From the NCBI GenBank assembly GCA_964403725.1, contig CAYOHI010000002.1:21644-85643 (forward strand): DNA of 64,000 nucleotides, given 5' to 3'. Position numbers and translations under genes: made by a program. Positions 24,941 through 61,940 of the stretch are shown here, piece by piece. Origin of the DNA: an uncultured Candidatus Saccharibacteria bacterium (lineage in GTDB: Bacteria > Patescibacteriota > Minisyncoccia > Portnoybacterales > UBA2143). The number at the start of each line of letters is the position of its first letter. Position 1 is the first letter of the stretch. The notes beneath the pieces are model-generated. The model was given only the letters and a program-made list of their open reading frames with translations, did no database searches and had not been told where the DNA came from.

Positions 24941-25006
24941 GCAGCTAACAATGAATAGTAAATAATATTGTTTTTGTTTCCTGTTCATTGCTTGTTGTGA
25001 TGGTTT

Positions 25007-27077: not shown

Positions 27078-27086
27078 TATAAAAAT

Positions 27087-27458: not shown

Positions 27459-27460
27459 TT

Positions 27461-28531: not shown

Positions 28532-28539
28532 TATAGATT

Positions 28540-29745: not shown

Positions 29746-29782
29746 AAATTAAAGGTCGGGGTTAATTAAAACAAGGGGAAAA

Positions 29783-30232: not shown

Positions 30233-30296
30233 ATTAATTATTGGTTAACAAAGGTCGAGTAATTAGATTTTAAATTTCATCTATTTACGAAAGGGG

Positions 30297-30758: not shown

Positions 30759-30800
30759 TTAGTTTTTAAACAGTCTGGTAACCAGAGACCTCATGAGATA

Positions 30801-31592: not shown

Positions 31593-31622
31593 TTTAATAT
31601 TTAAATTGATAAAATTAGGCTT

Positions 31623-32105
31623 ATGAATAAAAAAATATATACAATTCTTTTTTTAATAGTTGTTTTGTTTCTTGGTGGATATTATTATTTCTACTTCCAG
31701 AATTCAGAAGTAAAAACACAAGATGATCAGAATGAAGTAGTCCAAGAAGAACAAAACGGAGAAGTTGAAGTATCAGGGGGTGGCGAATGTCCAATTGGGG
31801 TTAATAGGATTATTGATGGTGCTTTTCAAAAAACTGAAGATGGTTTTATCTATCTCCAAATTGAAGGTCAAGATTCTGTAGAGATGATTAAAGTAACGGA
31901 TGATACTTCTTTCTTGAAAATAGATCTTACATCATCAATGGATGTTATTGATCAATCAAATATCACTGTGGACGAATTAGGGGAAGGAAATCAGCTTTCA
32001 GTCATATCTCTTTGCAATGAGTGTGCTGAAAATGAGGAGGGATGTATTGAAGAAAAAACAGCTTTAACAGTCAGATATATGAATGTTGAAGGCGAAAGGG
32101 AATAA
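31623..32105 (+). CDS. secreted hypothetical protein
   Basis: N-terminal TM/signal segment. Acidic, Cys-containing C-terminal domain. Confidence 0.35.
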   Translation: MNKKIYTILFLIVVLFLGGYYYFYFQNSEVKTQDDQNEVVQEEQNGEVEVSGGGECPIGVNRIIDGAFQKTEDGFIYLQIEGQDSVEMIKVTDDTSFLKIDLTSSMDVIDQSNITVDELGEGNQLSVISLCNECAENEEGCIEEKTALTVRYMNVEGERE

Positions 32106-32107
32106 AT

Positions 32108-32515
32108 ATGATGACTAAAATAAAAGGCAATACTTTAAAATTTTCTTTTAATCTCAAAGATTATCCGTTAGAAGCTCTTTACGGAGCAGCCTATGTCTTT
32201 CTTGATAAAGTCTATTTGTTTTTAAACAGTAAGCCTAAAGAAAAGATAGAGGTTTCTCTAAAAGGCAAGAAAAAGTTAAGTAAAAAACAATTAGAGAAAT
32301 TAAAGGGGGAGTTCTTAAACGAACTCTTTAATTATACTATCAGGATTAAGATGGCCAAGGGTAATCGGAAAATTAGGGAATTTATCATTGGCCAGGCTTT
32401 AATTTCGGCTTATGGCAGCGAGTCCAATCAGGAAGATGAAATGAAATATAAGGATGATCCTTTAGGTATCGCTATGTCTTGGGAGGATAAGTACGAGAAA
32501 AAAGGCAAGAAATAA
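32108..32515 (+). CDS. hypothetical protein immediately upstream of the Hxs-like module
   Basis: 135 aa, no recognisable domain. Start is adjacent to the upstream gene's stop. Confidence 0.3.
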   Translation: MMTKIKGNTLKFSFNLKDYPLEALYGAAYVFLDKVYLFLNSKPKEKIEVSLKGKKKLSKKQLEKLKGEFLNELFNYTIRIKMAKGNRKIREFIIGQALISAYGSESNQEDEMKYKDDPLGIAMSWEDKYEKKGKK

Positions 32516-32718
32516 TGCAGATAAAATTTAATAAAAAAATATACAGCTTAAAAGCTATAAAATTAGCCATTAAAGACTATCAGGGATTGGCTGATTTTAA
32601 TTTGGAGAAAAAAGGAGAATATATTTTAGTTAAATTAACTAAAATTGACAAAGAATACAAAGGAATAATTAAAGATGAATTCTGTAATTATATCCTTTCT
32701 TTAATGAAAACAGATTAA
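32515..32718 (+). CDS. small hypothetical protein (HxsD-position accessory candidate)
   Basis: 67 aa, overlaps the previous stop and lies 4 nt before the radical SAM gene. Assigned by position only. Confidence 0.3.
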   Translation: MQIKFNKKIYSLKAIKLAIKDYQGLADFNLEKKGEYILVKLTKIDKEYKGIIKDEFCNYILSLMKTD

Positions 32719-32721
32719 TTT

Positions 32722-34173
32722 ATGTCCCTTGATTCAGATAAAATTAAATACAACCAATTAGGATTCTTTCGTTTTAAAGAGTTCAAGAATAAATATCTTT
32801 TAACCAATGATGTTGGTCAATATTTATTTTTAACAAAAAAGGAATTTAAAAGTTTCTTGGAGAATAAATTGGAAAAAGATAAAGAGCCATATTTGTCTTT
32901 GAAAAAAAAGAATTTTCTAAAAAACGAATTAGACTTAACAGAATCAATTGACAGATACAGGTCAAAGAAGGATTTTCTTTTTGGCGGACCTAGTTTGCAT
33001 ATTATAGTGGTAACCTTGAGATGTAACCATAGATGCGTTTATTGCCATGCTAGTGCCCAGGCTATGGACAAAGAAGAGCTTGATATGGATGAAGTAACAG
33101 CCAGAGAGACAGTTGATAAGATTTTTGAAACAACTAGTCCCTTTGTAGCCATTGAATTTCAAGGCGGTGAGCCATTAGTCAATTGGCCAATAGTCAAATT
33201 TATTATTGAATATGCCCAGAAGAAGAACAGGAAAATAAAGAAAGATCTGGAGTTGCGCTTGGTCTCTAATATGTCTTTGATGACTAAGGAAAAATTTGAT
33301 TATTTGATCAAGAAAAAGGTGAGTATGTGTGTGTCTTTAGATGGATCTGAGAAAATACACAACAAAAACCGACCCTTGGTAGGCGATAAAACTGGGAGTT
33401 ACAAACATGCAGCCAAATGGGTTAAGAAATTCTATAAGCTCTATCCTCAATTGAGAAAGAAAGGATATATTTTCAAAATGGGCGTGGCTATTACAGTCAG
33501 TCGATTTTCACTGCCTCATTACAAGAAAATGGTTGATGAATTTATGAAATTGGGCTTTAACGATATTTACTTGCGTCCTCTAAATCCTTTCGGCTTTACT
33601 AAAAATCATTTTCAGAAAATCGGCTATGGCGTTAAGGATTACATGAAATTCTATAAAGGTGCTCTGGATTACATGATTGATTTAAACCTTAAGGGTAAGG
33701 AATTCAAGGAAAAAACAGCAATTACTTTTCTGACCAAAATTTTAACCAGAAATGATCCTAATCACTTAGATTTTCGCTCTCCTTGCGGAGCAGGTATTGG
33801 TCAATTAGCTTATAATTATAACGGAGATGTCTATACTTGCGATGAAGGAAGAATGCTATCTATGATGGATGATGAAAGTTTTCGTTTAGGCAATGTTAAA
33901 GAAAATACTTATCAGGAAATGGTAGGTAATCCAGTAGTTAGAACGATGTGCACAGCCTCTTGTTTAGAAGGCTTGCCTCATTGCAGTGATTGCGTTTACA
34001 AGCTCTATTGCGGGGTCTGTCCGATTTATAATTATTTTGAACAGGGTAATATTTTTGGCCAGATGCCGACTAATGAAAGATGCCAGATAAATATGGCTAC
34101 TTTGGATTTATTATTTGAAAAACTGCAAGATAAAAAAGCAGGACCTGTTTTGAAGTCTTGGCTGGATAAATAA
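32722..34173 (+). CDS. radical SAM/SPASM-domain peptide maturase candidate (HxsB/HxsC-like)
   Basis: CNHRCVYC (CxxxCxxC) cluster. C-terminal SPASM-like Cys array (CGAG..YTCDEG...CTASC...HCSDC...CGVCPIYN). ~85-aa N-terminal extension. Encoded directly upstream of the His-Gly-Ser repeat peptide. Confidence 0.75.
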   Translation: MSLDSDKIKYNQLGFFRFKEFKNKYLLTNDVGQYLFLTKKEFKSFLENKLEKDKEPYLSLKKKNFLKNELDLTESIDRYRSKKDFLFGGPSLHIIVVTLRCNHRCVYCHASAQAMDKEELDMDEVTARETVDKIFETTSPFVAIEFQGGEPLVNWPIVKFIIEYAQKKNRKIKKDLELRLVSNMSLMTKEKFDYLIKKKVSMCVSLDGSEKIHNKNRPLVGDKTGSYKHAAKWVKKFYKLYPQLRKKGYIFKMGVAITVSRFSLPHYKKMVDEFMKLGFNDIYLRPLNPFGFTKNHFQKIGYGVKDYMKFYKGALDYMIDLNLKGKEFKEKTAITFLTKILTRNDPNHLDFRSPCGAGIGQLAYNYNGDVYTCDEGRMLSMMDDESFRLGNVKENTYQEMVGNPVVRTMCTASCLEGLPHCSDCVYKLYCGVCPIYNYFEQGNIFGQMPTNERCQINMATLDLLFEKLQDKKAGPVLKSWLDK

Positions 34174-34237
34174 GTTTTGTGTTATCCACAGGCGGATTAG
34201 TTTTATTTAAAAAATTTTGCTATAATAAAGTAAATAA

Positions 34238-34558
34238 ATGAAAAAGACAAAATTACCTCAAATCAAGAAAGACATTAAGGCTTTCTTAACGAGCGAAGAA
34301 GGAAGGATAAATAAAAAGAAAGTAGCCAAAGTGGCTATGGGTCTTTTGGCTTTAGGAGTTGGTTTAGCTGGTGCTATGAAGCCAGATCCAACTTCAGCTG
34401 CCTGTTCTCATGCCTCTCACGGCTCACACGGATCCCATAGTTCCCACGGATCCCACGGCTCTCACGGCTCACACGGTTCTCATGGAAGTCATGGATCACA
34501 TGGTAGTCACGGCTCACACGGCTCACACGGCTCACACGGATCTCATAGTAATTATTAA
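34238..34558 (+). CDS. His-Xaa-Ser repeat precursor peptide (HxsA-like) with 14 His-Gly-Ser repeats
   Basis: 106 aa: Lys-rich leader, hydrophobic VAMGLLALGVGLAGAM segment, then SHASHGSHGSHSSHGSHG...(HGS)n...SHSNY. Confidence 0.65.
   Translation: MKKTKLPQIKKDIKAFLTSEEGRINKKKVAKVAMGLLALGVGLAGAMKPDPTSAACSHASHGSHGSHSSHGSHGSHGSHGSHGSHGSHGSHGSHGSHGSHGSHSNY
34406..34549 (+). repeat. in-frame 9-nt tandem repeat (TCN CAY GGN)x~15 encoding the SHG repeats
   Basis: Direct reading shows tctcacggc / tcacacgga / tcccatagt / tcccacgga... Third positions vary, so units are non-identical at DNA level. Confidence 0.8.
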
Positions 34559-34571
34559 TCTATAAATCATT

Positions 34572-36265: not shown

Positions 36266-36308
36266 AATACCTCTATAGTAGAGGTATTTTATTTTCACTA
36301 ACTGAATT

Positions 36309-37688
36309 TTAGTACGAGAATGCGTTAAGATTAGTCGACAGATTGCGCATATGTTCTAGTGTATCAGATATTTCTTGATGAGAAGTTTTACAATTATATT
36401 TAATCCAGTCTTTGATAACGTTGCTCCAGTTTATAATATCTTTATCAATATATTTATTTCCAGTTTTTTTCTTAATCATATCAAATGACATTGAATTGGG
36501 GAGAGGCGTTAAATAGGACGGTACAATTAGATTATTAGGATCAGATTGTATTATTCTTTCAGCCAGTTTAATAGTCTTTTTAAGGCCTTTACTGGTTTCT
36601 CCAAGATTACCTAAGACAAAATAGCCTTCTATTGGAATTTTGTATTTTATTAATAACTCAACAGCTTTTTCATTCATGGCAGAAGTTGTTCCCTTGTTCA
36701 TAAGTTTGAGACAGTCGTCATCATTGCTTTCTATGCCGATGAATAGCTGTCTGACTTTTATTTCTGATAGTTTTTTAACTATTTTTTCATCAGCGAGATG
36801 ATTTATTCTTGCTTGAATTTTTAAATAAGGTGCATTCTTATATTTCTTTGCTTCTCTGTAGTATTTGTTAAACCATTTAATATCACCTAATAAATCATCT
36901 GTTGTTTCCCATATGTAATCAACTTTGTATTTAGAAGCTAGATTATTGTATTCAGACCAAACAGTAGCTGGGTCTTTGAAAATGTGTTCATTGTGCATCA
37001 ATGAGCAAAAAAGACACCATTTATTGTTATTCGCTCTCCAGGCACATCCTTTTTGAGAATAAGTGGTAAAAGGATTTTTGTAGTTTGAATGTGGAAAGTT
37101 TTTCTGATAGCTTTTAAAATATTTTTGAGGATCAATTATATCCTTGTTTATCTCTAATTTAGAAAAAGGAGTTATTATTAATTCATTAATCTTTATCTTA
37201 TCATTATCGCAATAGGCGATATTTTTTATTTCTGATAATTTTTTTTGAGTTATATATTCATAGAATGCTTTTTCTCCATCGCCGCGGATGACTATATCAA
37301 CGCAATAGTCTTTGGAATATATGCCTCTGTTCTTTAATATTTCCTGGTAAATTGAAGAAGGATAATGTCCGCCAAAGACCACTTTGGCTTTTATTTTTTT
37401 GCATTCTCTGGCTAGGATTAATGATTTTTCATATCCAGTAAACATCGATCCTATTCCTACGATGGTTGGTTTGAATTTTTTGATTTCTTTCTTTATTTCG
37501 TTGGTGGATAATAGCTGGTCATCCAGGATTAATAATGGAGTATTAGGTAGCTTTTCTTTGAGGTAGGATCCTATTATATTGACTCCCAAAGGAAAATGAG
37601 GTCCTTGTCGAAGTTCAAAGATATTTTTTGGTTTTGAATTGTAAGGCAGAGGATTAACTACGTTAATCAGTATTATTTTTTCTCCCAT
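36309..37688 (-). CDS. B12-binding-domain radical SAM protein (class B-like)
   Basis: N-terminal cobalamin-binding-like Rossmann region (IVGIGSMFTGYEKS..VVFGGHYPS). Then CAWRANNNKWCLFC (C-x9-C-x2-C) in the radical SAM core. Confidence 0.55.
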   Translation of the reverse strand: MGEKIILINVVNPLPYNSKPKNIFELRQGPHFPLGVNIIGSYLKEKLPNTPLLILDDQLLSTNEIKKEIKKFKPTIVGIGSMFTGYEKSLILARECKKIKAKVVFGGHYPSSIYQEILKNRGIYSKDYCVDIVIRGDGEKAFYEYITQKKLSEIKNIAYCDNDKIKINELIITPFSKLEINKDIIDPQKYFKSYQKNFPHSNYKNPFTTYSQKGCAWRANNNKWCLFCSLMHNEHIFKDPATVWSEYNNLASKYKVDYIWETTDDLLGDIKWFNKYYREAKKYKNAPYLKIQARINHLADEKIVKKLSEIKVRQLFIGIESNDDDCLKLMNKGTTSAMNEKAVELLIKYKIPIEGYFVLGNLGETSKGLKKTIKLAERIIQSDPNNLIVPSYLTPLPNSMSFDMIKKKTGNKYIDKDIINWSNVIKDWIKYNCKTSHQEISDTLEHMRNLSTNLNAFSY

Positions 37689-38599
37689 CCTCTTATTAAT
37701 CCTTTCTTTTTATAGCTAGTTTTGTCTTTTAGTTTATTTTTATTATGAGCTATTTTTCTGACATAGCATGAGACACATTCTCCACAATGATCATCATCCC
37801 ATTTAATGCAACTCCGAGCTCTATCTATCGGTATATCTTGATCTGTCGCCCATTTTAGTAAATCTGCTTTTGAGAGGAAAAAGCCAAATTCTTTTTCTAA
37901 TGGCAGGGAAGTGACTTGCCAGGAGTAGTCATTCATCAAAGAACAAACAGATAAGTTATTAGTTCTCATAGCTGTTAGTGTCTCATCTCTCATGACATAG
38001 CCATCTTCGGCAACAATGGCTGTAAAGATGTTTCTTACTTTGATATTTTCCTTGATCTTAAGGAAGATTGCGTATTGTACCCCATATGAAGTTAAAAGAT
38101 TAGTGTACATCGGGATCCCTAAATGTTGGCCTAGTTTATTAACTGGCTTGCTGGAAACATCAATGATTGGGAAGCGAATCTCCATCGGCGGGATATAGGC
38201 GTTCATTTTTTTAACTTTATGCCAATATTTAGGATATCTTTTTTTATAATATTTGGAAAAGTAGTCTACAGACTTTTCTTCAAAGGCAACTCTTTTTTGT
38301 CCTCTTCTTAAAAATACTGGATGAACGTGTACTTTATAGACTTCCATTAGATAAGCCCAGGTAGTGACGCTATCCATTCCTCCAGAAAACATTAATATTA
38401 CATGAGAATTAGCTAAGGGCCTTTTCATTACATGGCCTTTTTGTTCTTTAAATATATTTTCAATTGTCTGGATGAGCTTGGGGTCTTCTAATTTTCTTGA
38501 ATTTAAGAGATTTTGAATTTCTTTTTTTGTTTTTGTTTTGAATTTATTCATATTATTTCTTGATATAGTTTTGTTTGATAATTCCCTCCCACCAGTCAT
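37673..38599 (-). CDS. QueC-like PP-loop ATPase (7-cyano-7-deazaguanine synthase family) with N-terminal extension
   Basis: VILMFSGGMDSV PP-loop and C-terminal Zn-ribbon CIKWDDDHCGECVSCY matching the QueC C-terminal CxxC..CxxC. 308 aa, longer than typical QueC. Confidence 0.5.
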   Translation of the reverse strand: MTGGRELSNKTISRNNMNKFKTKTKKEIQNLLNSRKLEDPKLIQTIENIFKEQKGHVMKRPLANSHVILMFSGGMDSVTTWAYLMEVYKVHVHPVFLRRGQKRVAFEEKSVDYFSKYYKKRYPKYWHKVKKMNAYIPPMEIRFPIIDVSSKPVNKLGQHLGIPMYTNLLTSYGVQYAIFLKIKENIKVRNIFTAIVAEDGYVMRDETLTAMRTNNLSVCSLMNDYSWQVTSLPLEKEFGFFLSKADLLKWATDQDIPIDRARSCIKWDDDHCGECVSCYVRKIAHNKNKLKDKTSYKKKGLIRGWEKK

Positions 38600-39134
38600 T
38601 AGATTTTTGTTTTAGAATCTTATTACCTATTAATTTTCCATGTTTAGTAGTTAATTTCTTTACTGAGAAATTCATCCATTTCTTTGCTTCTTTTAATCCG
38701 TCATCATATTGCTGCTTTTCAGTCAGTAATTCTTCTAATATGTCTGCATCATGTATAATTTTAATTTCCTTGGTTTTGTTTTTTTGATATTCTTTAAAGA
38801 TATTATTAATATTTTTTTCGATAGGTAAATCTTTTAAAGTATCCTTTAGTGCCTTTAATTCATTTATTTTTAAATAGCATCTGTTAACCAGATCAGCATC
38901 GCCGGTTCTGGTTTCTGGAATGTCATGGAATAGGCACATTAGCAGGGTTTTTTCTATATCGGCTTTTTCCAGAGTGGCTAATATATAGCCTATAATAGTC
39001 ACGCGAAAACTGTGTTCAGCTATGGAATTTTTCTGTTTTTTTAATTTGCTTCTTGTTATTTTATTCAAATAGCCAACTTCAAAAAGAAAATCAGCTATCT
39101 TTTTTGTATTTAATTTTTTATTTCCATGGTTCAT
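38553..39134 (-). CDS. HD-domain phosphohydrolase (YfbR-like 5'-deoxynucleotidase family)
   Basis: H...HD....D signature: EHSFRV...LFHDIPETRTGD. Confidence 0.65.
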   Translation of the reverse strand: MNHGNKKLNTKKIADFLFEVGYLNKITRSKLKKQKNSIAEHSFRVTIIGYILATLEKADIEKTLLMCLFHDIPETRTGDADLVNRCYLKINELKALKDTLKDLPIEKNINNIFKEYQKNKTKEIKIIHDADILEELLTEKQQYDDGLKEAKKWMNFSVKKLTTKHGKLIGNKILKQKSNDWWEGIIKQNYIKK

Positions 39135-39669
39135 ATCTTATTAAGGGATTTAATTGATATTTTTTAAATTGGTCTTTAGTTTTTCTATCCATTGAATCAA
39201 GCAGAAAGCTAAAGCCAATGATCCTACCTCTTTTAATTCTTTTTATTAGCTTAATGGCAGCTTTGGCGTGCTGGCCAGTAGCAAACCAATCATCGATAAT
39301 CAGTATCCTGTCTTTTTTGTTGATTATATACTCATTGTCTTCAATTTCCAAAGCTTTTTTCTGTTTACTGTAATCAAAGAATGATTCAGTATATATTTTA
39401 TGCAGTTTCTTTATATGTGGATCAGGTGTATATATATTACCTTTTTTTCTTATGGTAACCAAACCAGCCTTGAGGATATATGCAACGCTTGAAGCAAGTA
39501 GGAAACCACGCGATTCGATTCCGATTACTTTAGTAATGTCTGATTTTAAAAATGGTTTTGCTAGTGATTTTGATATTTTTTGGAAAAGTAATTTATCAGA
39601 AATCGGGCTGTAAATAGAGCATTCCTCGTGCAATCTTATTATTTTTTCCTTATCTTTTTTGGTTAACAT
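39118..39669 (-). CDS. phosphoribosyltransferase (adenine PRTase-like)
   Basis: PRPP-binding motif ILIIDDWFATGQHA. Confidence 0.55.
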   Translation of the reverse strand: MLTKKDKEKIIRLHEECSIYSPISDKLLFQKISKSLAKPFLKSDITKVIGIESRGFLLASSVAYILKAGLVTIRKKGNIYTPDPHIKKLHKIYTESFFDYSKQKKALEIEDNEYIINKKDRILIIDDWFATGQHAKAAIKLIKRIKRGRIIGFSFLLDSMDRKTKDQFKKYQLNPLIRYEPWK

Positions 39670-40358
39670 ACTTCTATGCTGCCCAAGGCTATTTTAATGG
39701 CCTTATTTAAATATTTGTTAAAAGTTTTTTTATCTAAATATTTATGTTCAACTTTTTTGTTTTTGGTACTTATCTTATCTATTCCTACGAGTATGCTGTC
39801 GACGGATATTTTGTGTTTCTTGCCGAAATAGAAGAGAATGCTGCTTTCCATTTCTATTGCGCCTATTTTTTCTTTTTTCCATTTTTTGATATCACGAAGC
39901 AGATAAGGGTTGTAAAAAGCATCTACTGTAACAATTTTTTCTCCTTTTATTTCTTTGAAATTGCTGTTTGTGAGAATTGTTTTAATTGAGTTGTTTGTAT
40001 AATGCTTGGTGGTGCCGTCGTTTATCAATATAGATCTTGCAAATATTATATCGCCAAGTTTTTTATTATTGATAAAGCAGCATGAACCGATTCTGATTAT
40101 CTTTTTAATCTTATGCTGGGATAATAGTTCCTCTAATAGGATTGCAGCAGAAGGAGTTCCTATTCCACTAGACTGGATTGTTATTTTATTCTTCTTGTAG
40201 TATCCGGTATAAGCGCTAAAGCTGCGTTCTTTGATTATTGATTTGTAATTTTTTAAATATTTTTTAGCAATCAATTCAGCTCTTTCAGGATCTCCTACTA
40301 AAATTATTTTATCGCTGTAGTCCCTATTTTTGATTTTTAGGTGGAATTCCTTATTCAT
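39663..40358 (-). CDS. purine/uridine nucleoside phosphorylase family protein (PNP/MTAP/DeoD-like)
   Basis: ILVGDPERAELIA and SSGIGTPSAAILLEEL motifs of the PNP_UDP_1 fold. Confidence 0.55.
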   Translation of the reverse strand: MNKEFHLKIKNRDYSDKIILVGDPERAELIAKKYLKNYKSIIKERSFSAYTGYYKKNKITIQSSGIGTPSAAILLEELLSQHKIKKIIRIGSCCFINNKKLGDIIFARSILINDGTTKHYTNNSIKTILTNSNFKEIKGEKIVTVDAFYNPYLLRDIKKWKKEKIGAIEMESSILFYFGKKHKISVDSILVGIDKISTKNKKVEHKYLDKKTFNKYLNKAIKIALGSIEVC

Positions 40359-40360
40359 GA

Positions 40361-41605
40361 TTAGAAATTTATGAAATATATTTTAGAGGCGATTATTTCT
40401 TTAGTTTTATCTGTGAATTTTATATTTATTTTTTTAAAAAACATACTGTATTTATCTTTGAAGTATTCAGTATCTTTCTCTTTTTCTGCCAATACAGTGA
40501 CAACTAAATTATCCTTAGAAGTGATTAATTCTATGCCTGATTTGTCTTTGTATTTGTTTAAGAATTTTTCTTTGAATTTTAAGTTTCTCTGTATTTTTTC
40601 TTGGAATCCTTTTCTGCCTAGAGATAGTATGGTTAGAAGGGAGGCAACTGGCGAGATGGCAGTTCTAGTGGATAGTAGAGTGTTGTCGTTTCTGCTCAGA
40701 AAATCTATTGGCTCGGCGATCAGGTTTAATAGCTTTCTTCTGTGTAAGACTAATCCTGCTGGACAAGGGGTATGTCCAAATTTATGAAAATCAACGGCCA
40801 AGGCTTTGATTTCAGAATATTTGAAGGGAGAGAAACTGTTGTCTGTAAACGGATTAATCAAACCGCTCATGGCAGCATCTATCCAGCAAAAGAATTCTAC
40901 ATGTTTGTATTCTTTTTTGATTGCTCTGATAGTTTGTACTGTTTTCTCTATATTATCATCTGTGCCAGTTAGGGTGTATCCTAGGGTTAAGGGAATGATA
41001 AATCCTTTTATGTCTTTCTTGATTAATTTCTTTATTTTCTTTGATAAATCAAAACAATCTAGGTTCCACTCCTTTTCATTTACAGCAATGATTTCATTTT
41101 TAATGCCCACTATTTTGGCTGATTTTCTGATAGAATAGTGAGTTAAATTATTACTCAAGAATCTGATTTGATTAAAGTCTATCTTTTTCTTTCTTAGCCA
41201 GTCTCTTGCCAACCAGGCAGAAAATATGTTTCCTTCTGTTGAGCCGGTGGTTGAATAGCCTGTTAAGTCTCGGTCTTTGGCGTTATACAGATCTATCATT
41301 TTAAAAACTAATTCTTTTTCAATCGATTCATTGGTTGTTTCAGAATATTCTGATTCGGTTGTATTGCCCAATAGTACGGGATTGTGCTTGATTAGGTCTT
41401 GCCAAGCTTTGATAGATATCTGGGATGGGGTTGATACTAAATGGGCGATTTTAGCTGATTTTCTAAATTCTTTTAAATGTTTTTTAAGTTTTTGTATTTT
41501 AAGCTCTATATTCTTCTTTGTTTCTGGGTTTTTATTAAAATTAAATCCATCATTATTGTTGTGATTGGATTTTGGTAATAAGTTTTTTTTAGGTTGTTTT
41601 TTCAT
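40361..41605 (-). CDS. PLP-dependent group II decarboxylase-like protein
   Basis: GYSTTGSTEGNIFSAW and DFHKFGHTPCPAGLVL resemble the fold-type I decarboxylase Gly-rich and HK (PLP-Lys) regions. Confidence 0.45.
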   Translation of the reverse strand: MKKQPKKNLLPKSNHNNNDGFNFNKNPETKKNIELKIQKLKKHLKEFRKSAKIAHLVSTPSQISIKAWQDLIKHNPVLLGNTTESEYSETTNESIEKELVFKMIDLYNAKDRDLTGYSTTGSTEGNIFSAWLARDWLRKKKIDFNQIRFLSNNLTHYSIRKSAKIVGIKNEIIAVNEKEWNLDCFDLSKKIKKLIKKDIKGFIIPLTLGYTLTGTDDNIEKTVQTIRAIKKEYKHVEFFCWIDAAMSGLINPFTDNSFSPFKYSEIKALAVDFHKFGHTPCPAGLVLHRRKLLNLIAEPIDFLSRNDNTLLSTRTAISPVASLLTILSLGRKGFQEKIQRNLKFKEKFLNKYKDKSGIELITSKDNLVVTVLAEKEKDTEYFKDKYSMFFKKINIKFTDKTKEIIASKIYFINF

Positions 41606-41734
41606 GATTTGCTAGTAATATGTAGAATGCAGGGGTATAATTAAGTTAACAAGGTTAATTTAGTGTTATTATATCACAATTGCATTGCGGTAAGTAGCTA
41701 TCTTATATACTCATATATAGGCTTGAATTAGTCA
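41606..41734. promoter_or_regulatory. AT-rich divergent promoter region between the minus-strand nucleoside-like module and the 22-kb plus-strand operon
   Basis: 129-bp intergenic, the only sizeable gap from 36309 to the window end. Contains TATAAT-like and TTGCAT-like elements on both strands. Confidence 0.3.
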
Positions 41735-42580
41735 ATGATGTTAAATATTAAAAAAATTAGGGTTAAGAAAATAATATCGCCGACAAATCTGGCTAATAGC
41801 GATTATGGCATAGATCCCTATGTCGGCTGCGAGATCGCCTGTTCTTACTGTTATGTCAGGTATATAGGCGATAGTAATGATAATAAGTGGGGCTCTTATG
41901 TTTTTGTTAAAGAAAATGCTCCTGATTTGATTATTGAAGATAAGGCTTATGATAATAAGACAATATCCATTGGAACCTTAACTGATCCTTATCAATTTGC
42001 AGAGAAAGAGTATGAAGTTACTAGAAAAATTTTGGAAAAATTAATTTCTTTTAACTCAGAGATCGCAATAATTACAAAATCTGATTTGGTTTTAAGAGAT
42101 ATTGATCTATTAAAGAAATTTAAAGATATTATTGTAGCTATTTCATTATCCTATGTTGATGACAAGATAAGGAAGGAATTAGAGCCAAAGGCTATAAGCA
42201 CAGAAAAGAGGATTAAAGTCTTAAAAGAATTGCATAGTAATGGGATAAAAACAGCTTTATTCATAGATCCAATATTTCCTGGCATTACTGACTGGAAAAA
42301 ACTTGTAAAATCTACCAGAAGTTATGTCGATAAATATCTATTTGAAAATCTGAATATCTATCCATCAACAGAAAATATTATCTTTAGCTTCCTTAAAAAG
42401 AATAAGCCAGAATTAATTGATGAATATAAGGAAATCTATTCAGACGAAAAGAAATATTGGCGAGGAATCGAGAGTGATATTAAGGATTATTGTGAAAAAG
42501 AAAAGATAAATTACGTTTCAACCATATTAAATTATTATAAATACTATCATTCAGATAGATTTTCTAGTAATAAGAAATGA
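41735..42580 (+). CDS. radical SAM protein, SplB/COG1533-like (DNA-photolyase-type radical SAM fold)
   Basis: SPTNLANSDYGIDPYVGCEIACSYCY (CxxxCxxC) near the N-terminus, as in SplB-family enzymes. Confidence 0.6.
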   Translation: MMLNIKKIRVKKIISPTNLANSDYGIDPYVGCEIACSYCYVRYIGDSNDNKWGSYVFVKENAPDLIIEDKAYDNKTISIGTLTDPYQFAEKEYEVTRKILEKLISFNSEIAIITKSDLVLRDIDLLKKFKDIIVAISLSYVDDKIRKELEPKAISTEKRIKVLKELHSNGIKTALFIDPIFPGITDWKKLVKSTRSYVDKYLFENLNIYPSTENIIFSFLKKNKPELIDEYKEIYSDEKKYWRGIESDIKDYCEKEKINYVSTILNYYKYYHSDRFSSNKK

Positions 42581-43452
42581 AAATAATATCAGGTTTTTCA
42601 AAAATAGAAGAAGTAAGTAATTTAATCAACAGAGGGGCTTCTGTTTTATTTTGTGGAATTTTATCAGAAGCTTTTAATAATCACAGGCCTAAATTGGCTC
42701 TTTTTAATTTGAAAGATTTAAATGAGTTAAGAAAAGCGACTAAAATAACGCATGATTTAAAAAAAGAAATATATGTTGTCGTTAATGCCATGGATTATGA
42801 AGACAAAGATAGAAAGAATGTTATTAAAGAGCTTAAGAAAATCGAGAGAATTAACGTTGATGGCCTAATAGTTTCAGACATCTCCATTCTCATGCTTATT
42901 AAAGAGAATGATATAAAAATTCCTGTGAGCTTGAGTAGCGTAGCTGCCTGTTATAATTCCATGGCTATTAAATTCTACGAGGATTTGAATGTCAGCTCCA
43001 TTATCCTGCCCCAGCAAATATCAGCTCCTGAAGTCAAGAAGATAAAAGAGTTAACCAATTTGCCCTTGGAAGTCTTTTATCGCAATAGCATGTTCAATAC
43101 CTGCCAGCAAGTGGATGGAATGTGTCTGTTATGCAATGTAATAGATCGCAAGAAATTCATTGTCAGGCCTAGAAGCAGTACAGATAGATTTAATGTTAAG
43201 TGCTTGAGGGGTAATAAGAATAATTTGGGCAGTTTAATCAAAGGCAATATTGATAGCGAGTTAAGATATATCTATGATACATATAATATAGGAGTGGAAT
43301 ATGTAAAAATGGGAGAAAGAGGATTGAAATCAGAATCTAAATACTTGGCAGTTGATATATTATCAAAGGTTATAAAAATACTAGGCAAGCATCCTAGTAA
43401 AAAAATGTTTATTAAAGAAGCAAAGGACATATGGAAAGAATTATATTGCTAG
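42577..43452 (+). CDS. peptidase U32-family protein (UbiU/RlhA-like large subunit candidate)
   Basis: N-terminus resembles the U32 'ELLAPAG..AGADAVYFG' start. EVFYRNSMFNTCQQVDGMC matches the U32 E-x-F...C-x4-G-x-C signature. Confidence 0.45.
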   Translation: MKIISGFSKIEEVSNLINRGASVLFCGILSEAFNNHRPKLALFNLKDLNELRKATKITHDLKKEIYVVVNAMDYEDKDRKNVIKELKKIERINVDGLIVSDISILMLIKENDIKIPVSLSSVAACYNSMAIKFYEDLNVSSIILPQQISAPEVKKIKELTNLPLEVFYRNSMFNTCQQVDGMCLLCNVIDRKKFIVRPRSSTDRFNVKCLRGNKNNLGSLIKGNIDSELRYIYDTYNIGVEYVKMGERGLKSESKYLAVDILSKVIKILGKHPSKKMFIKEAKDIWKELYC

Positions 43453-44195
43453 ATAAAGTTAAAAACTACCAAGAGATCAAAGATTTTGATCGTGTCTATC
43501 TTGGCAATGAATTTTGTCAGAATTTAATACCGACATTAAGCGATTTTAAATTACAAGTTAAAAAAATAAAGGATAAGGATTTTAGTTTTGTAACTCCGTT
43601 TGTAATTGATAAGAATATCAGTAAGCTGGAAAGGATATTCAAGTATTTAGACAAGGAATATGATGAGCCAGAGGTGATTGTAAATGATTTAGGAATACTA
43701 TATCTTCTTCACGAAAACTATCCAAAGATTAAAAAAGTATTTGGCAGAATATTGTATCCAAATATTTTCCTAAAGCCAAAAGATGAAATAATTAAGATTA
43801 AATCAAAATCTACAATTGAGTTGTTTAAGAAATATAATATAGATAGATATGAATTATCTGTTAAAAAATCAGATTTAACGCTTAATATTTTGGATAAACA
43901 AGTTAAATCAGAAAAAATGTTTAAGGATTTGAAATTCTCGCTCTATTATCCATACTTTCCAGTTTCAGTTACCAGAAAATGCAAGATGAGAAATCAGAAA
44001 GGCTTTGATGACTATGGAGCTTGCCAGCATGGATGTGCTGATAATCTATATGAAATAAAATACTCAGATTACCTTTGTCGGCACGCCATGGTTAATGATA
44101 AGATTTATATGAAAGGCAACGCATATTTTATCAAAAGCAAGAAACCAGCTAATATATCTAAATTAATATCCAGATTAGTTTTTCAATCAATGTAA
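43431..44195 (+). CDS. small U32-family protein (UbiV-like partner candidate)
   Basis: VYLGNEFC near the N-terminus (like UbiV VIYLGE..C). C-terminal C-x13-C-x3-C (CKMRN...GACQHGC) resembling the UbiV Cx12Cx3C [4Fe-4S] ligands. Confidence 0.4.
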   Translation: MERIILLDKVKNYQEIKDFDRVYLGNEFCQNLIPTLSDFKLQVKKIKDKDFSFVTPFVIDKNISKLERIFKYLDKEYDEPEVIVNDLGILYLLHENYPKIKKVFGRILYPNIFLKPKDEIIKIKSKSTIELFKKYNIDRYELSVKKSDLTLNILDKQVKSEKMFKDLKFSLYYPYFPVSVTRKCKMRNQKGFDDYGACQHGCADNLYEIKYSDYLCRHAMVNDKIYMKGNAYFIKSKKPANISKLISRLVFQSM

Positions 44196-44199
44196 TTTT

Positions 44200-45405
44200 A
44201 TGAAAATCATTAAAGATTTAGAAAAAATAGAAAAAAGGAATAAAGATTTCTTGCATTTGACAGCTAATGAGAATGTAATTTCAAATACGGCCAGGAAATA
44301 TCTATCTTCTGAATTAGGTAATAGGTATTTTTTAGGATCAGGGAAAAAAGGAATTGTTAGGAATAAAGCTTTGGAACTGTTGGGCTTGGAAGAAGTAGAT
44401 AAATTAGTAAATAAGGCTGAAGGATCTGCCAATAAGATACTAGGAGCATCACTGACATCTTTTAATCTTTTATCAGGAATCAATGCGATGACATCTCTAA
44501 TGCTAGCGATTTCCAAGCCAAATGATGTAATCATGACCTTGAACCCTGATTTTGGGGGTCACTTCATAACCAAGTCGATAATTGAAAGAATTGGACGCAA
44601 GCAGATTGTTACCCAGCACAAAGATAATGGAGAAATAGATATTAAAAAAACAGTAGACTTGTTAAACAAAAATAAATCTAAGGTATTGTACTTAGACAGT
44701 ATGTCAGTTTTAAATAGATTTCCATTGTCTGAAATTAGATCTATGATGAAAAATGAAGGTAGGTTAATTTTTGATGCAAGTCATACTATGGGATTGATTA
44801 TGGGAGGTCAATATCAATCTCCGCTAAAAGAAGGAGCTGATATTATTGTTGGTAACTCACATAAAACATTTCCCGGACCGCACAAGGCGATAATTGCTTT
44901 TAAGAATAAGAATTATGGAAAAAGAGTTATGTCTGTGATTAACAATTGTCTGATTTCTACTGTTCAAACGAGTAATCTAATAGCCTTGGCAATAACTGTT
45001 TTAGAAATGGAAAAGTTTGGCAAATCATATGCCAAGCAAATAATGTTGAATTCCCAAAAATTGGCAAAAGAAATAGAGAGCAAAGGCTATGACCTGATTA
45101 GATCTTCTAATAACAGCTATACTTATAACCATCAGATACATATTTCATTTAAAAATATTAAGGATTCAAAAACACTAATGGATAGTTTTTATAAAAACAA
45201 TATCAGTATTAATGTCATTAAACCTGGTCAGCCAAATTCATTTATAAGATTAGGAACTCAAGAGATTACTCGAAGAGGGATGAAGGAAAAAGATATGATA
45301 AAAATCGCTGAGTTTTTTGATAAATCTATTAAAAGAGAAAATATTAAAAACGAGGTCTTGAGGTTCAATAAAAAGTTTAAAAAGATACATTATTCTTTTG
45401 ATTAA
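44200..45405 (+). CDS. serine hydroxymethyltransferase-like PLP-dependent enzyme (fold type I)
   Basis: HLTANENVIS (cf. ELIASEN), DFGGHFITKS (cf. GGHLTHGS), NSHKTFPGP (cf. THKTLRGP, PLP-Lys). Confidence 0.55.
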   Translation: MKIIKDLEKIEKRNKDFLHLTANENVISNTARKYLSSELGNRYFLGSGKKGIVRNKALELLGLEEVDKLVNKAEGSANKILGASLTSFNLLSGINAMTSLMLAISKPNDVIMTLNPDFGGHFITKSIIERIGRKQIVTQHKDNGEIDIKKTVDLLNKNKSKVLYLDSMSVLNRFPLSEIRSMMKNEGRLIFDASHTMGLIMGGQYQSPLKEGADIIVGNSHKTFPGPHKAIIAFKNKNYGKRVMSVINNCLISTVQTSNLIALAITVLEMEKFGKSYAKQIMLNSQKLAKEIESKGYDLIRSSNNSYTYNHQIHISFKNIKDSKTLMDSFYKNNISINVIKPGQPNSFIRLGTQEITRRGMKEKDMIKIAEFFDKSIKRENIKNEVLRFNKKFKKIHYSFD

Positions 45406-46333
45406 GATGAATAAAATTAAGATTTTAACCCCGATTGATAATGTTGATGAATTTGAATTACTATCATCAGCTGGTGCTGATGAATTCTATTGCGGGGTCA
45501 TTATAAATGACAAAAAATATAACAGCGATAGAATTGGAAAACAGAAACAGGAAAATATTTCTGGGATCAGTGAATTGAAGAAATTAGTCAAAAAGATAAA
45601 AGATAATAAAAAAGATTTGTATCTAGTTTTGAACGCCCAATACTTATCTTCAAGAGATATAAATGAAGCTGGAAGAAGAATAGATGCCTTTAAGAAAATA
45701 GGAATAGATAATTATATAGTATCTAACTTGAATCTAATAGATAAGGTAAAGGATAAGGATATCAATATCATTATCAGTTCCTTTTTAGAAGCTAAAAATG
45801 TCGAAACGGTAAAATTTCTCAAGAAATTCAAGCCAAAGAGAATCATATTAGACAGGCAGATTACAGCCAGTGATTTAAAAGCCATAACATCTGAATTTCC
45901 AAGATTAGAATTTGAAACATTTATCATGGAAGCAGCATGCCGGAGCCTGGACAGTTACTGCAACCGACATATTTTCAACTATAAAAAACATACTTGTAGA
46001 GAAAATTTCAAAATAGACAACAAGAAAGGATTAACAAGGTCAGAATTGAATACGATTACTTCAAGATTAAAGATGCCGATTGTTAATTGCGGTATTTGCG
46101 CTTTATACCAATTTAGGAATTTAAATGTTGAATCGGTTAAGATAGTAGGGCGCGGCTATCCAACTAAATGGAAAGTTAAAAATGTTAAGCATGTCAGAGA
46201 TGCCTTGGGCGTATTAAATGACACTAAGAGCAAAAAAGAATATCATCAGAAATGCCTAAGTCTGTTTAAGAAAACTTATAATTTCCCTTGTAATAAAGAG
46301 TATTGCTATTACCCTCATTTTTTTAAAAATTAA
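45398..46333 (+). CDS. peptidase U32-family protein (second large-subunit candidate)
   Basis: ILTPIDNVDEFELLSSAGADEFYCGV start, FETFIMEAACRS...C and CGICALYQF Cys-containing segments. Confidence 0.45.
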   Translation: MIKMNKIKILTPIDNVDEFELLSSAGADEFYCGVIINDKKYNSDRIGKQKQENISGISELKKLVKKIKDNKKDLYLVLNAQYLSSRDINEAGRRIDAFKKIGIDNYIVSNLNLIDKVKDKDINIIISSFLEAKNVETVKFLKKFKPKRIILDRQITASDLKAITSEFPRLEFETFIMEAACRSLDSYCNRHIFNYKKHTCRENFKIDNKKGLTRSELNTITSRLKMPIVNCGICALYQFRNLNVESVKIVGRGYPTKWKVKNVKHVRDALGVLNDTKSKKEYHQKCLSLFKKTYNFPCNKEYCYYPHFFKN

Positions 46334-46337
46334 GATT

Positions 46338-47051
46338 ATGGAAAATGTCTTGTTAATCAACAGAATAGAAGATATTAAATTATTAACCGATAAGTATTCT
46401 CGTGTTTATCTTGGCAACGAGTTCTGTTCTAGATTGTTGCCGACTGAATCTGAGATAAAGAAGATATTAGCTGTAGTTAAGAAAGAAAAACTAAAATTAA
46501 CTATTGTCACATCATTTGCCGGTGAAGATGAATTAAAAAAGATAAAGAAGTTTTTTAGCATAGTTAATAAGCATGAGATGTTAGATGAAGTAGTTGTAAA
46601 TGATTATGGAATCTTGAATCTTTTAATCAATAAATATCCAAAAGTTAAATTGGTTGCTGGCCGGGCTCTATCAAGATTCTATAATTTTGATAAAAAGAAT
46701 TATTTGTATGATAAGATTGGAATAAGGAGGTTTGAATTCGATAGTAATCGCATTAATGAAGATGCTTTAAAAAATATATCTTCAGTAAAATTTTCCTATT
46801 ATCATCCCTATTCTATCCTGAATACGACGCGCTATTGTTCAGTAGTAGACAAGAAAAACAAAAGTAGTAATATTGGTATTCTAAAATGCAATCAGGAATG
46901 TCAAAAAATCGGTTCTCTAAAGCTGAAAAACAAGCTTATTAGAAACAAATTAACTCTTAGAGGAAATGCAATATTTATTAATAATAAAGAAGATAAGTTA
47001 AAAGTCATAAAGAATATTAAAGCGATCGATCGTTTAGTATTTCAAAATTAA
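46338..47051 (+). CDS. small U32-family protein paralog (second UbiV-like candidate)
   Basis: RVYLGNEFCSRLLP and C-x16-C-x3-C (RYCSVV...ILKCNQEC). Paralog of 43431..44195. Confidence 0.4.
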   Translation: MENVLLINRIEDIKLLTDKYSRVYLGNEFCSRLLPTESEIKKILAVVKKEKLKLTIVTSFAGEDELKKIKKFFSIVNKHEMLDEVVVNDYGILNLLINKYPKVKLVAGRALSRFYNFDKKNYLYDKIGIRRFEFDSNRINEDALKNISSVKFSYYHPYSILNTTRYCSVVDKKNKSSNIGILKCNQECQKIGSLKLKNKLIRNKLTLRGNAIFINNKEDKLKVIKNIKAIDRLVFQN

Positions 47052-47053
47052 TT

Positions 47054-57541: not shown

Positions 57542-57543
57542 AT

Positions 57544-61938: not shown

Positions 61939-61940
61939 TT

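Follow-up and report, generated by a model that had tools for sequence, protein, structure and literature searches.

A QueC-like enzyme of an apparently undescribed clade within a putatively mosaic nucleoside-handling locus of the Patescibacteria

Six genes on the minus strand at positions 36309-41605 of a 64,000-nucleotide stretch of contig CAYOHI010000002.1 (assembly GCA_964403725.1), referred to here as the window, encode proteins related to enzymes of nucleobase and nucleoside metabolism in an uncultured member of the Patescibacteria. In the order of transcription, these are a pyridoxal phosphate (PLP) decarboxylase, a purine nucleoside phosphorylase (PNP), a phosphoribosyltransferase (PRTase), an HD-domain phosphohydrolase, a relative of the queuosine enzyme QueC and a cobalamin-dependent radical S-adenosylmethionine (B12-rSAM) enzyme. 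An earlier, sequence-only reading had treated the six as one module tied to a large operon that starts on the opposite strand. The explanation favoured here, at a probability of about 0.45, is instead that the six genes are a mosaic rather than one module, and that the QueC-like enzyme would carry out an adenylation followed by the addition of an amine. The parts of this explanation differ in strength. That the cassette is autonomous from the large operon and that the QueC-like protein is not a QueC can be held with considerable confidence, while the adenylation-plus-amine chemistry, argued from analogy, is a tentative proposal that we rate at less than an even chance. All the domains belong to known superfamilies; what is new is a sizeable clade of the QueC family with a remodelled pocket, its occurrence in three genomic contexts, including fusions to peptide-recognition domains, and the mosaic nature of the locus.

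The six co-directional open reading frames (ORFs) proposed by the earlier reading are all present, and Pfam bears out the domain assigned to each product. Since neighbouring genes overlap or abut (junctions of -16, -47, -17, -7 and +2 nt), the six have the appearance of a single transcription unit. None of the six proteins has lost its catalytic motifs. The products score far under every equivalog cut-off of NCBIfam, which makes them divergent members of their superfamilies and not recognisable housekeeping orthologs.

Central to the cassette is its signature gene (37673..38599, minus strand), which encodes a QueC-like PP-loop ATP-pyrophosphatase with a C-terminal ribbon of four cysteines. The Pfam QueC model matches it at 49 bits, and the NCBIfam model TIGR00364 at 34.1 bits against a cut-off of 150.3. 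The PP-loop reads SGGMDS at residues 72-77, with S72, G73, G74 and D76 invariant within the family, and the ribbon is C264-x7-C272-x2-C275-x2-C278. In the AlphaFold2 model, which has a predicted local distance difference test (pLDDT) score of 90.7, disorder is confined to residues 1-16. Translation probably begins at Met17 (window position 38551), because the 47-nt overlap with the HD gene then vanishes, an 85%-identical relative agrees with it and residues 1-16 are modelled with low confidence. The N-terminal extension pointed out in the earlier reading consists of two confidently predicted helices (residues 25-34 and 40-54; pLDDT 97-99) that are conserved family-wide; it amounts to ~45 residues and is still present after the start is corrected. 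Foldseek places QueC (2pg3 and 3bl5) and Cap9 (9nto_B) as the best matches at 18-20% identity, followed by the YcfA-GTP complex, TilS, argininosuccinate synthetase and GMP synthetase, with TtuA, NcsA and LarE also among the fold neighbours. A sequence search of the PDB gave 41.7 bits for Cap9 versus 18.6 bits for Bacillus subtilis QueC, and Escherichia coli QueC shares 22% identity at E=0.35, with a profile alignment (hhalign) probability of 91%.

A 2026 preprint has defined the canonical QueC signature and reported that Y35A, R99A, Y131A and Y189A abolish function (Libby et al., 2026). Three motifs of that signature, each with an essential residue, are changed or deleted in the window clade. 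The canonical YxQxHxxE, which holds the essential Tyr35, is changed to RGQxRVxxEE, such that Tyr35 is replaced by an invariant Arg99 of the window protein and His39 by Arg103. The VPxRN loop, which carries the essential Arg99 of QueC, reads IPMY(S/T)N, is five residues shorter and has no Arg, and YPDC, with the essential Tyr131, is deleted, the clade having D199-G-x-V-M-x-x-ETLTA. Further, the cysteine ribbon is spaced C(x)7CxxCxxC in 150 of 181 representatives, as against C(x)8CxxCxxC in canonical QueC. Residues invariant in the clade include Arg99, Arg103, Arg142, Arg212, Asp199, Asp224, Gln228 and Lys244. The canonical motifs occur in no clade member, including the second copies found at loci L001, L010, L025 and L036. 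Canonical QueC and the window protein are alike in fold (Foldseek E~1e-7, target TM-score 0.71-0.72), in the SGGxDS PP-loop and in the C-terminal four-cysteine ribbon, but they share only 18-22% identity, the motifs are lost, an extension of ~45 residues is added and the window clade is never linked to queD, queE or tgt. Searches by tblastn with E. coli QueA, Tgt, QueD, QueE and QueF gave no match in the 64-kb window or in the ~40-50 loci that were fetched, which extends the earlier remark that no QueD, QueE or QueF gene lies nearby. Because the residues that canonical QueC needs for 7-carboxy-7-deazaguanine (CDG) are lost, the protein, which keeps the PP-loop and the Cys4 ribbon, is on sequence grounds very probably not a preQ0 synthase. 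The description of the module as deazapurine-like is not supported, given that the CDG-pocket motifs are changed or deleted and that no que or tgt gene lies near any of the family members in the fetched loci.

The four loci with second copies each carry two diverged QueC-like paralogs (L001, 9974-10900 and 16325-17161; L010, 5215-6036 and 9980-10819; L025, 2185-3096 and 6768-7736; L036, 933-1796 and 2370-3188). The pairing of one paralog that has the RGQ motif with one that does not suggests two successive steps or a heteromer. The second gene in L001 and L010 was considered as a housekeeping QueC and rejected, the motif scan identifying the two genes as paralogs within the QueC-like clade.

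An exhaustive HMMER search over 1.84 billion representatives, with E<=1e-30 defining the clade, returned 258 representative clusters, and the top 150 of them span almost the entire profile, N-terminal extension included. A word-index search found just 33 relatives, at 38-85% identity, and scans of genomes and metagenomes brought 36 more loci, nearly all from Patescibacteria and one from a Nanoarchaeota metagenome-assembled genome (MAG). The motifs of the ten clusters analysed by Libby et al. (2026) differ from those of the QueC-like clade, and their preprint makes no mention of Patescibacteria, PqqD, YcaO, Ham1, thymidylate synthase, decarboxylase or nucleoside phosphorylase. A survey of the literature turned up nothing relevant on a QueC-like protein with thymidylate synthase, on QueC in Patescibacteria or on QueC together with PqqD or with ribosomally made peptides that are modified after translation (RiPPs). 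Judged by their sequences, the QueC-like genes represent an undescribed clade of the QueC (PF06508) superfamily. Only one relative exceeds 57% identity, in contrast to more than 100 clusters at 67% identity or above for the valyl-tRNA synthetase (ValRS) of the window; with ValRS relatives so many and QueC-like relatives so few, the cassette appears to be accessory and patchy among close relatives.

Some members of the clade are fusion proteins. Among the 181 representatives, 44 are long (390-465 aa), and the long ones that were sampled end in PqqD, a RiPP recognition element (RRE). The PqqD-fused members, a large group of their own (P0127, P0133, P0141, P0150 and P0193; loci L073-L075, where the L073 gene spans 10001-11248), share 28-36% identity with the window protein and sit in YcaO clusters, and stand-alone PqqD genes adjoin relatives of 45% identity. 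P0091 (481 aa) is a fusion with a Ham1-type nucleoside triphosphate (NTP) pyrophosphatase. In addition, P0112 (447 aa) carries an S24/S26 peptidase-like domain, and P0150 is adjoined by a 59-aa ORF, YcaO, a nitroreductase-type dehydrogenase, a stand-alone PqqD, ScmC and an S24 peptidase. Lasso-peptide systems offer a comparison, as their asparagine-synthetase-like cyclase works with a PqqD-type RRE. The likeness to these and to YcaO-RRE systems is that an enzyme of the ATP-pyrophosphatase type goes with PqqD, as a fusion or as a neighbour, in the QueC-like clade; unlike the window protein, though, the lasso-peptide cyclase belongs to another PP-loop subfamily, and the window has neither a PqqD domain on this protein nor a PqqD gene.

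To define the neighbourhood, ORFs were called in all loci and clustered by blastp, representatives were annotated, and a gene within 6 kb was counted as a partner in the 31 non-redundant loci. The commonest partner is a PLP decarboxylase (12/31 loci, nine of group II and three of the Orn/Arg type), followed by an archaeal-type ThyA-like protein (11/31) and an HD_3 phosphohydrolase immediately upstream of the QueC-like gene (10/31). ABC ATPases (8/31), Methyltransf_24 (7/31), PNP and an RfaE-domain-II-like nucleotidyltransferase (6/31 each), and B12-rSAM and a Ham1-like NTP pyrophosphatase (4/31 each) are found less often. The nucleoside-handling set discerned in the earlier reading survives this comparison, since homologs of the QueC-like, HD, PRTase, PNP and decarboxylase genes recur in operons at many Patescibacteria loci, and the analysis shows these five to be an accessory nucleoside/nucleotide-tailoring cassette of the Patescibacteria, which does not serve queuosine and changes its genomic setting without the large operon.

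Three types of context track the clades in a neighbour-joining ordering. Type A, to which the window protein and its nearest relatives belong (L016, L001, L005, L017, L019, L020 and L021), combines PNP, HD, a nucleotidyltransferase and the QueC-like gene, with optional PRTase, decarboxylase, methyltransferase or B12-rSAM. In type B, a ThyA-like gene accompanies the QueC-like gene, with Ham1, a kinase-like protein and CYTH as optional members, and this group holds the fusion of QueC-like and Ham1. Type C is a RiPP cluster with rhodanese, QueC-like, ScmC-like, PqqD, YcaO, a nitroreductase-type dehydrogenase and rSAM/SPASM. Types A and B are often flanked by surface-glycan genes (Wzy_C, glycosyltransferases (GTs), ABC exporters, TagF-like, RGP and GLF).

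The remaining enzymes of the cassette are as follows. The first gene of the unit (40361..41605, minus strand; Pfam Pyridoxal_deC) encodes a group II, or fold-type I, PLP decarboxylase of 414 aa with the motifs DAA243 and DFHK272-275, the latter holding the PLP lysine. It scores 151 bits against the NCBIfam histidine decarboxylase cut-off of 305, and its nearest solved structures are the histidine decarboxylase 7erv (98 bits) and the plant serine decarboxylase 8jij (89 bits). Group II homologs next to QueC-like genes (9/31 loci) are 33-41% identical to it. The replacement of the group II fold by the unrelated Orn/Arg-type fold at other loci argues that the function, amine supply, is what is selected, and the decarboxylase is probably an amine supplier. 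The adjacent gene (39663..40358, minus strand; Pfam PNP_UDP_1) encodes a DeoD-type, hexameric-class PNP-like protein of 231 aa, whose score for DeoD-type PNP is 122.6 bits against a cut-off of 230 and whose best solved matches are bacterial purine nucleoside phosphorylases. It has the motifs GDPERA22, RIGS89, EME169 and D194, which we take to serve phosphate and ribose binding, with Asp194 presumably the equivalent of the purine-protonating Asp; the Q-x-R motif of uridine phosphorylases is absent. A type I PRTase of 183 aa, resembling adenine and xanthine phosphoribosyltransferases (APRT and XPRT), is encoded at 39118..39669 (minus strand; Pfam Pribosyltran). It matches APRT at 83 bits (cut-off 125) and XPRT at 62 bits in NCBIfam, has APRT and XPRT as its nearest solved structures and keeps the phosphoribosyl pyrophosphate loop LIIDDWFATG123-132. 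A homolog of 44% identity takes the same slot in L005, and other relatives have there an RfaE-domain-II-like nucleotidyltransferase or a class I methyltransferase. In sequence and nearest structures, the PNP and PRTase show purine-type features. The HD_3/YfbR-like metal-dependent phosphohydrolase, resembling 5'-nucleotidases (193 aa; 38553..39134, minus strand; Pfam HD_3 at 88 bits, and YfbR-like), has the H41...H70D71 motif, and its nearest solved structures are AF1432, 1xx7 (deposited as 'oxetanocin-like protein') and HDDC2. An NAD-synthetase-like role, composed of PRTase, nucleotidyltransferase and amidation, was also considered and lost its support, as the nucleotidyltransferase of the relatives is nearest to RfaE domain II and not to NadD/NMNAT.

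The last gene of the unit differs in its associations. The class B (cobalamin-dependent) rSAM enzyme (459 aa; 36309..37688, minus strand) has Pfam B12-binding and Radical_SAM domains (PF02310 at 41 bits and PF04055 at 45 bits, both over the cut-off), and in NCBIfam it has only sub-threshold matches to B12-rSAM methylases, of at most 86 bits against cut-offs of 280-650. Its cluster motif is C215-x9-C225-x2-C228 in place of the canonical CxxxCxxC. This spacing, noted as unusual in the earlier reading, is invariant in 26-28 homologs down to 22% identity and is, therefore, a family trait and not an error. The AlphaFold2 model (pLDDT 92.5) is nearest to OxsB 5ul4 (Foldseek E 2e-19), MgmA 9ccb, TsrM 6wte, AprD4 and TokK, a set in which methylases (TsrM, TokK and MgmA) and non-methylases (OxsB and AprD4) score similarly. 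Homologs of 46-52% identity lie inside the Hxs/rSAM/GT clusters of L068-L070, and in L016 the QueC-like gene is followed by one of 76% identity. The L006 and L017 copies, at only 22-24% identity, still have Cx9Cx2C. Convergent on the B12-rSAM gene, and outside the six-gene unit, lies a plus-strand gene for a class I methyltransferase-like protein of 275 aa (35438-36265). A weak match of 30 bits to CpaM, a corrinoid-protein-associated methyltransferase, hints that it may service the cobalamin cofactor. Its homologs, at 44-45% identity, adjoin the B12-rSAM homologs in L016/L076, L068 and L069/L070. The closest relative, L016/L076 (QueC-like 85% and B12-rSAM 76% identical), has, in this order, PNP, methyltransferase, HD, QueC-like and B12-rSAM genes and a convergent 275-aa homolog. 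Beyond these lie an M14 peptidase gene and GT genes, and the sequenced side holds no Hxs genes. These occurrences show that the B12-rSAM and 275-aa genes are a two-gene sub-module able to join either type of cluster.

Oxetanocin A biosynthesis provides a possible functional analogy, with the HD phosphohydrolase OxsA and the B12-radical-SAM enzyme OxsB acting on a purine deoxynucleotide. The window likewise has both kinds of enzyme in one nucleoside-handling operon; OxsB is the top Foldseek match of the B12-rSAM protein, and the 'oxetanocin-like' 1xx7 is among the top matches of the HD protein. Against a closer kinship, identity to OxsB is 16-18%, MgmA, TsrM, AprD4 and TokK are nearly equal as matches, and OxsB (729 aa) has extra domains. 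The oxetanocin system has no counterpart to Cx9Cx2C or to the QueC-like, PNP, PRTase and decarboxylase partners.

The large operon (41735..62870, plus strand, 21 genes by Pfam and NCBIfam) encodes ~12 rSAM proteins, several of them HxsC- or HxsC4-like, two U32 proteins that are each followed by an unknown partner, a serine hydroxymethyltransferase (SHMT) homolog, a GT1, a GT28C-GT2, a pair of TsaD and Sua5 paralogs and an APH-like kinase. On the other side of the cassette, Hxs genes occupy 31623..34558 of the plus strand, with HxsD at 32108-32515, HxsB at 32722-34173 and the HxsA4 repeat peptide, (SHG)n, at 34238-34558. HxsB scores 527 bits (cut-off 370) and HxsA4 72 bits (cut-off 55), and HxsD is taken from the Pfam annotation of the identical contig L065; the HxsC-like genes do not reach the cut-off and are found within the large operon, at a distance of 22 kb. 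Overall, the region at ~31.6-63 kb of the window is an extended HxsA4-type cluster with the cassette in its middle. Loci L068 (from a Gastranaerophilaceae MAG) and L069/L070 hold homologous clusters; the genomes that conserve it are this MAG and GCA_974502465.1. Across L068-L070, identities are 40-52% for the SHMT-like protein, 41-47% for U32 and its partner protein, 38-50% for the rSAM encoded at 47054-47905, 63-68% for GT1, 50-52% for rSAM-SPASM, 39-46% for GT28C, 58% for the TsaD paralog, 61% for the Sua5 paralog and 45% for the 275-aa protein. In L069, the homolog of the operon abuts HxsB (73%) and HxsA (79%). The L068-L070 clusters contain an ornithine/diaminopimelate/arginine decarboxylase, a DegT aminotransferase and a PALP enzyme, and no QueC-like, HD, PRTase, PNP or group II decarboxylase gene. 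Conversely, homologs of the 21 operon genes or of the Hxs genes were found in none of the 31 non-redundant QueC-like loci. A single six-gene module belonging with the large operon is thus not supported, as the cassette and the operon occur without each other. The picture is mixed for the B12-rSAM (46-52%) and 275-aa (45%) genes, which are shared with L068-L070 and also accompany the cassette in L016/L076.

The most serious alternative is the one with which the study began, namely that all six genes are co-regulated with the large operon and supply or tailor the nucleoside moiety of a peptidyl- or glycosyl-nucleoside product. The head-to-head placement across a short spacer speaks for it, as do the G+C content of 31% shared by module and operon against 36% elsewhere in the window, and the B12-rSAM and 275-aa genes, which are true components of the homologous clusters. 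Moreover, QueC-like relatives work in RiPP clusters with an RRE and the window cluster encodes the HxsA4 peptide, while the SHMT homolog is threonine-transaldolase-like (280 bits against a cut-off of 650). The 129-bp divergent spacer itself (41606..41734, between the decarboxylase gene and the first plus-strand operon gene) holds nothing notable. Described earlier as AT-rich, it has 29.5% G+C versus 31% in the flanking genes, which is the local background; it has 32 promoter-like matches as against 33.1 expected from shuffles, promoter and terminator scans were not above chance, and Rfam finds no element in it at E<=1, the whole window giving just four tRNAs. Against this alternative stand the absence of the five cassette genes from L068-L070, the absence of the operon from all 30 other non-redundant cassette loci, the occurrence of cassette plus B12-rSAM in L016/L076, where the sequenced side has no Hxs genes, and the lack of any PqqD-like partner encoded in the window. 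Since the adjacency is not conserved, supply to the operon is possible for this window only, and we consider it unlikely, although not negligibly so. The G+C content is ~31% across cassette and large operon and ~36% over 1-36 kb of the window, with the drop at ~30000-36000, such that cassette and operon have a common base composition distinct from that of the remaining window.

Returning to the mosaic explanation, a mechanism can be sketched in which a purine-type base would be converted between its nucleotide, nucleoside and free forms by the HD, PNP and PRTase enzymes. With ATP, the QueC-like enzyme would adenylate a carbonyl or carboxylate oxygen on the purine-type base or nucleotide, and AMP would be displaced by an amine, most likely from the PLP decarboxylase; in the RRE-linked relatives, a peptide may take the part of the nucleophile or of the carboxylate. 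The product would then be tailored by a methyltransferase or the B12-rSAM enzyme and might be destined for a cell-envelope glycopolymer or, in the window, for the product of the Hxs-type cluster. With the decarboxylase as the commonest partner, coupling of an amine made by it to a purine-type base or nucleotide is the most economical model.

A precedent is Cap9 of type IV CBASS. QueC-family proteins are reported to catalyse the conjugation of a nucleobase to a protein through an amide in type IV CBASS, and the nucleophile is ammonia for QueC and a protein N-terminus for Cap9 and QatC. Cap9 is the best PDB sequence match of the window protein and has the highest target TM-score (0.79). The formation of an amide from an activated carboxylate and an amine other than ammonia is the chemistry proposed for the window clade, and RRE fusions make some clade members peptide-directed. 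The differences are that the window lacks CD-NTase, Cap10, QatA, QatB and QatD partners, that the context is one of nucleotide handling or RiPPs and not of defence islands, and that the ancestral catalytic core, retained in Cap9 according to a preprint, is lost in the window clade. The QatC model of NCBIfam matches only the Zn ribbon of the QueC-like protein, at 32 bits versus 280.

Several observations weigh against the proposed mechanism. For the adenylation-plus-amine step, the only grounds are the chemistry of the superfamily and the association of genes. Clades differ in their partners, to the extent that PNP/HD sets and ThyA-like/Ham1 sets hardly ever occur together, so a single chemistry acting on a single class of substrate may be the wrong assumption; pyrimidines are suggested by the ThyA-like partner, and purines by PNP, PRTase and Ham1. 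Some relatives (L005, L019 and L021) have no decarboxylase within 6 kb, and the rhodanese neighbour of RRE-type loci, together with the TtuA, NcsA, LarE and YcfA fold neighbours, would fit sulfur insertion equally well. The adjacency to the Hxs cluster could be functional in this window. All neighbour counts are lower bounds on account of greedy ORF picking, blastp clustering and often short contigs.

A second alternative, somewhat less probable than supply to the operon, is that the cassette serves a cell-envelope glycopolymer, for which it would make a donor or a decoration. A nucleotide would be turned into (deoxy)ribose-1-phosphate by HD and PNP, the RfaE-II-like nucleotidyltransferase, whose place is taken by the PRTase in the window, would activate the pentose, and the QueC-like enzyme would use the amine from the decarboxylase to amidate a sugar or uronic acid, as PP-loop sugar amidotransferases of the WbpG type do. 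Genes for Wzy_C, GT1/GT2/GT4, ABC exporter pairs, TagF-like proteins and RGP and GLF mutases do flank the cassette (L001, L002, L006, L013, L017, L019, L022, L023 and L076), and the nucleotidyltransferase partner is nearest to heptose-1-phosphate adenylyltransferase at 91 bits, although sugar-1-phosphate activation hangs on this sub-threshold match only. PF06508 includes N-sugar amidotransferases of the WbpG type, which Libby et al. (2026) assign, with surface-glycan genes, to cluster 5.2; their cluster 4, from Proteobacteria, has a PfkB-nucleoside deoxyribosyltransferase neighbour and a link to purine salvage. Like the window clade, both clusters are QueC-family groups outside the canonical type, with links to purine salvage or surface-glycan genes. 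The motifs separate them, with YGQ(x)6E and CH(x)5CxxCxGCxK in cluster 4 and SGGxDSxY and CxxC(x)6CxC in the WbpG cluster 5.2, as against RGQxRVxxEE and C(x)7CxxCxxC in the window clade, and the taxonomy and neighbours of both clusters differ too. The ThyA-like, Ham1, CYTH and kinase-like partners would be left unexplained, and envelope-glycan genes are common in small genomes of the candidate phyla radiation (CPR), so the adjacency may be incidental.

A bolder extension, to which we give a slimmer chance still, is that the whole clade consists of ATP-dependent ligases that join a salvaged nucleobase or nucleoside to an amine or peptide, as a non-deazapurine counterpart of Cap9 and QatC, with the window cassette adding a nucleobase-derived group to HxsA4 or to the glycosylated product of the radical-SAM supercluster. 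If true, a CPR bacterium would be making a RiPP or an envelope polymer to which a nucleobase is conjugated. The QueC family has recently been shown to reach beyond preQ0, with Cap9 and QatC attaching a nucleobase to proteins, and the substrate of the present clade, once worked out, would add a new reaction type to the PP-loop/QueC repertoire. It would also provide a first handle on specialised nucleotide chemistry in the Patescibacteria, whose metabolism has mostly been inferred from missing pathways. The picture of the locus is corrected in that the nucleoside genes are an inserted accessory cassette and not an integral arm of the HxsA4/radical-SAM/glycosyltransferase cluster.

Sulfur insertion is a further alternative, which we regard as improbable. 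Here, a nucleobase or peptide carbonyl adenylated by the QueC-like enzyme would have its oxygen replaced by sulfur derived from a persulfide or from cysteine to give a thio-nucleobase or thioamide, with the PLP enzyme taking part in sulfur delivery; the YcfA/YcfC pathway to 6-thioguanine is a model for such a role. TtuA, NcsA, LarE and YcfA-GTP are among the fold neighbours of the QueC-like protein, a gene with a rhodanese domain precedes the QueC-like gene in L024 and L026, and the four-cysteine ribbon could hold a metal or Fe-S centre. Yet the ribbon matches the Zn site of QueC, and the PLP enzyme resembles histidine and serine decarboxylases and is replaceable by an Orn/Arg decarboxylase, which argues for amine supply rather than a C-S lyase. 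Genes for a rhodanese, a cysteine desulfurase or a sulfur carrier are missing from both the window cassette and the PNP/HD-type loci.

A role in anti-phage defence or DNA modification, whether as a Cap9/QatC-like defence protein or through the synthesis of modified (d)NTPs beside an Hxs-type defence system, has very little probability. Apart from QueC, no protein is a better match than Cap9 in sequence and structure, and the canonical HXS, a compact unit of four genes (HxsA, HxsB, HxsC and HxsD) found almost only in Pseudomonadota, has been shown experimentally to act against phages. The ThyA-like, Ham1, kinase-like and CYTH partners of distant members resemble the logic of dNTP hypermodification in phages. 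However, none of the CD-NTase, Cap10/TGT, QatA, QatB and QatD partners is present in the window, PADLOC matches are weak (53, 26 and 28 bits, among them a partial match to Cap9-type QueC at 53 and QatC at 26), and the scan of viral contigs found no close member of the clade, only proteins at 22-27% identity that are presumably ordinary phage QueC. The window cluster differs from the canonical, Pseudomonadota-restricted HXS in gene order and content and is a remote and very atypical relative of it.

The least tenable alternative, at a similarly slight probability, is housekeeping: purine salvage (PNP, APRT and 5'-nucleotidase) and a queuosine QueC in a chance cluster with the B12-rSAM and decarboxylase genes, which would suit an organism of the salvage-dependent Patescibacteria, the four-gene core beside hrcA-grpE-dnaK in L019 and the presence of the cassette in relatives without the rSAM operon (an occurrence named beforehand as speaking against an operon link), but which, with its QueC part largely refuted by the lost signature residues and the absence of queD/E/F/tgt from every locus, is also contradicted by the sub-equivalog scores, the patchiness of the cassette among close relatives, its translational coupling with the QueC-like and B12-rSAM genes, and the PqqD and Ham1 fusions.

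The assignment of the host to the Patescibacteria comes from the ValRS, a class I aminoacyl-tRNA synthetase (3772-5835), which is 68-75% identical to valine-tRNA ligases of named Patescibacteria, Parcubacteria, Portnoybacteria, Nealsonbacteria and Paceibacterota. Other window genes are typical of a CPR bacterium, including a type IV pilus cluster, VanW, RecG, YchF, a housekeeping TsaD and a ComF-like protein. The pilus cluster, which resembles a type II secretion system (T2SS), lies at 22234-31592 directly upstream of the Hxs genes and contains T2SSE ATPases, T2SSF, several N_methyl pilins, a response regulator and an A24 prepilin peptidase. Identical DNA was also found in ENA ERZ23499079 and in two SRA assemblies. 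The ENA contig L065 is 100% identical to window positions 26309-38251, and its first 192 nt are unmatched; the match breaks off at 38251, inside the QueC-like gene, which reflects either an artefact of the contig end or a breakpoint at the strain level. An exact look-up of the window QueC-like protein matched no contig, while that of the identical B12-rSAM did retrieve contigs.

Within the large operon, a TsaD-like gene (116 bits) and a Sua5-like gene form a pair at 53688-54707 and 54704-55306, and a housekeeping TsaD with a high score (319 bits) is encoded at a different place in the window, 6254-7213, which marks the operon pair as specialised paralogs; they are probably a split carbamoyltransferase. 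Two tandem pairs of a U32 peptidase and an unknown protein of 237-254 aa occupy 42577-44195 and 45398-47051, and since both of the unknown proteins are matched by one and the same L068 gene (at 29% and 41% identity), the U32 pair has been duplicated. Finally, a minus-strand tRNA at 18669-18743 overlaps the first 42 nt of the RecG ORF called at 16581-18710 with a TTG start, so that this start was probably called too far upstream. The three further tRNAs of the window are at 7259-7330, 19764-19846 and 20475-20558, the second of which falls within an ORF call at 19294-19848.

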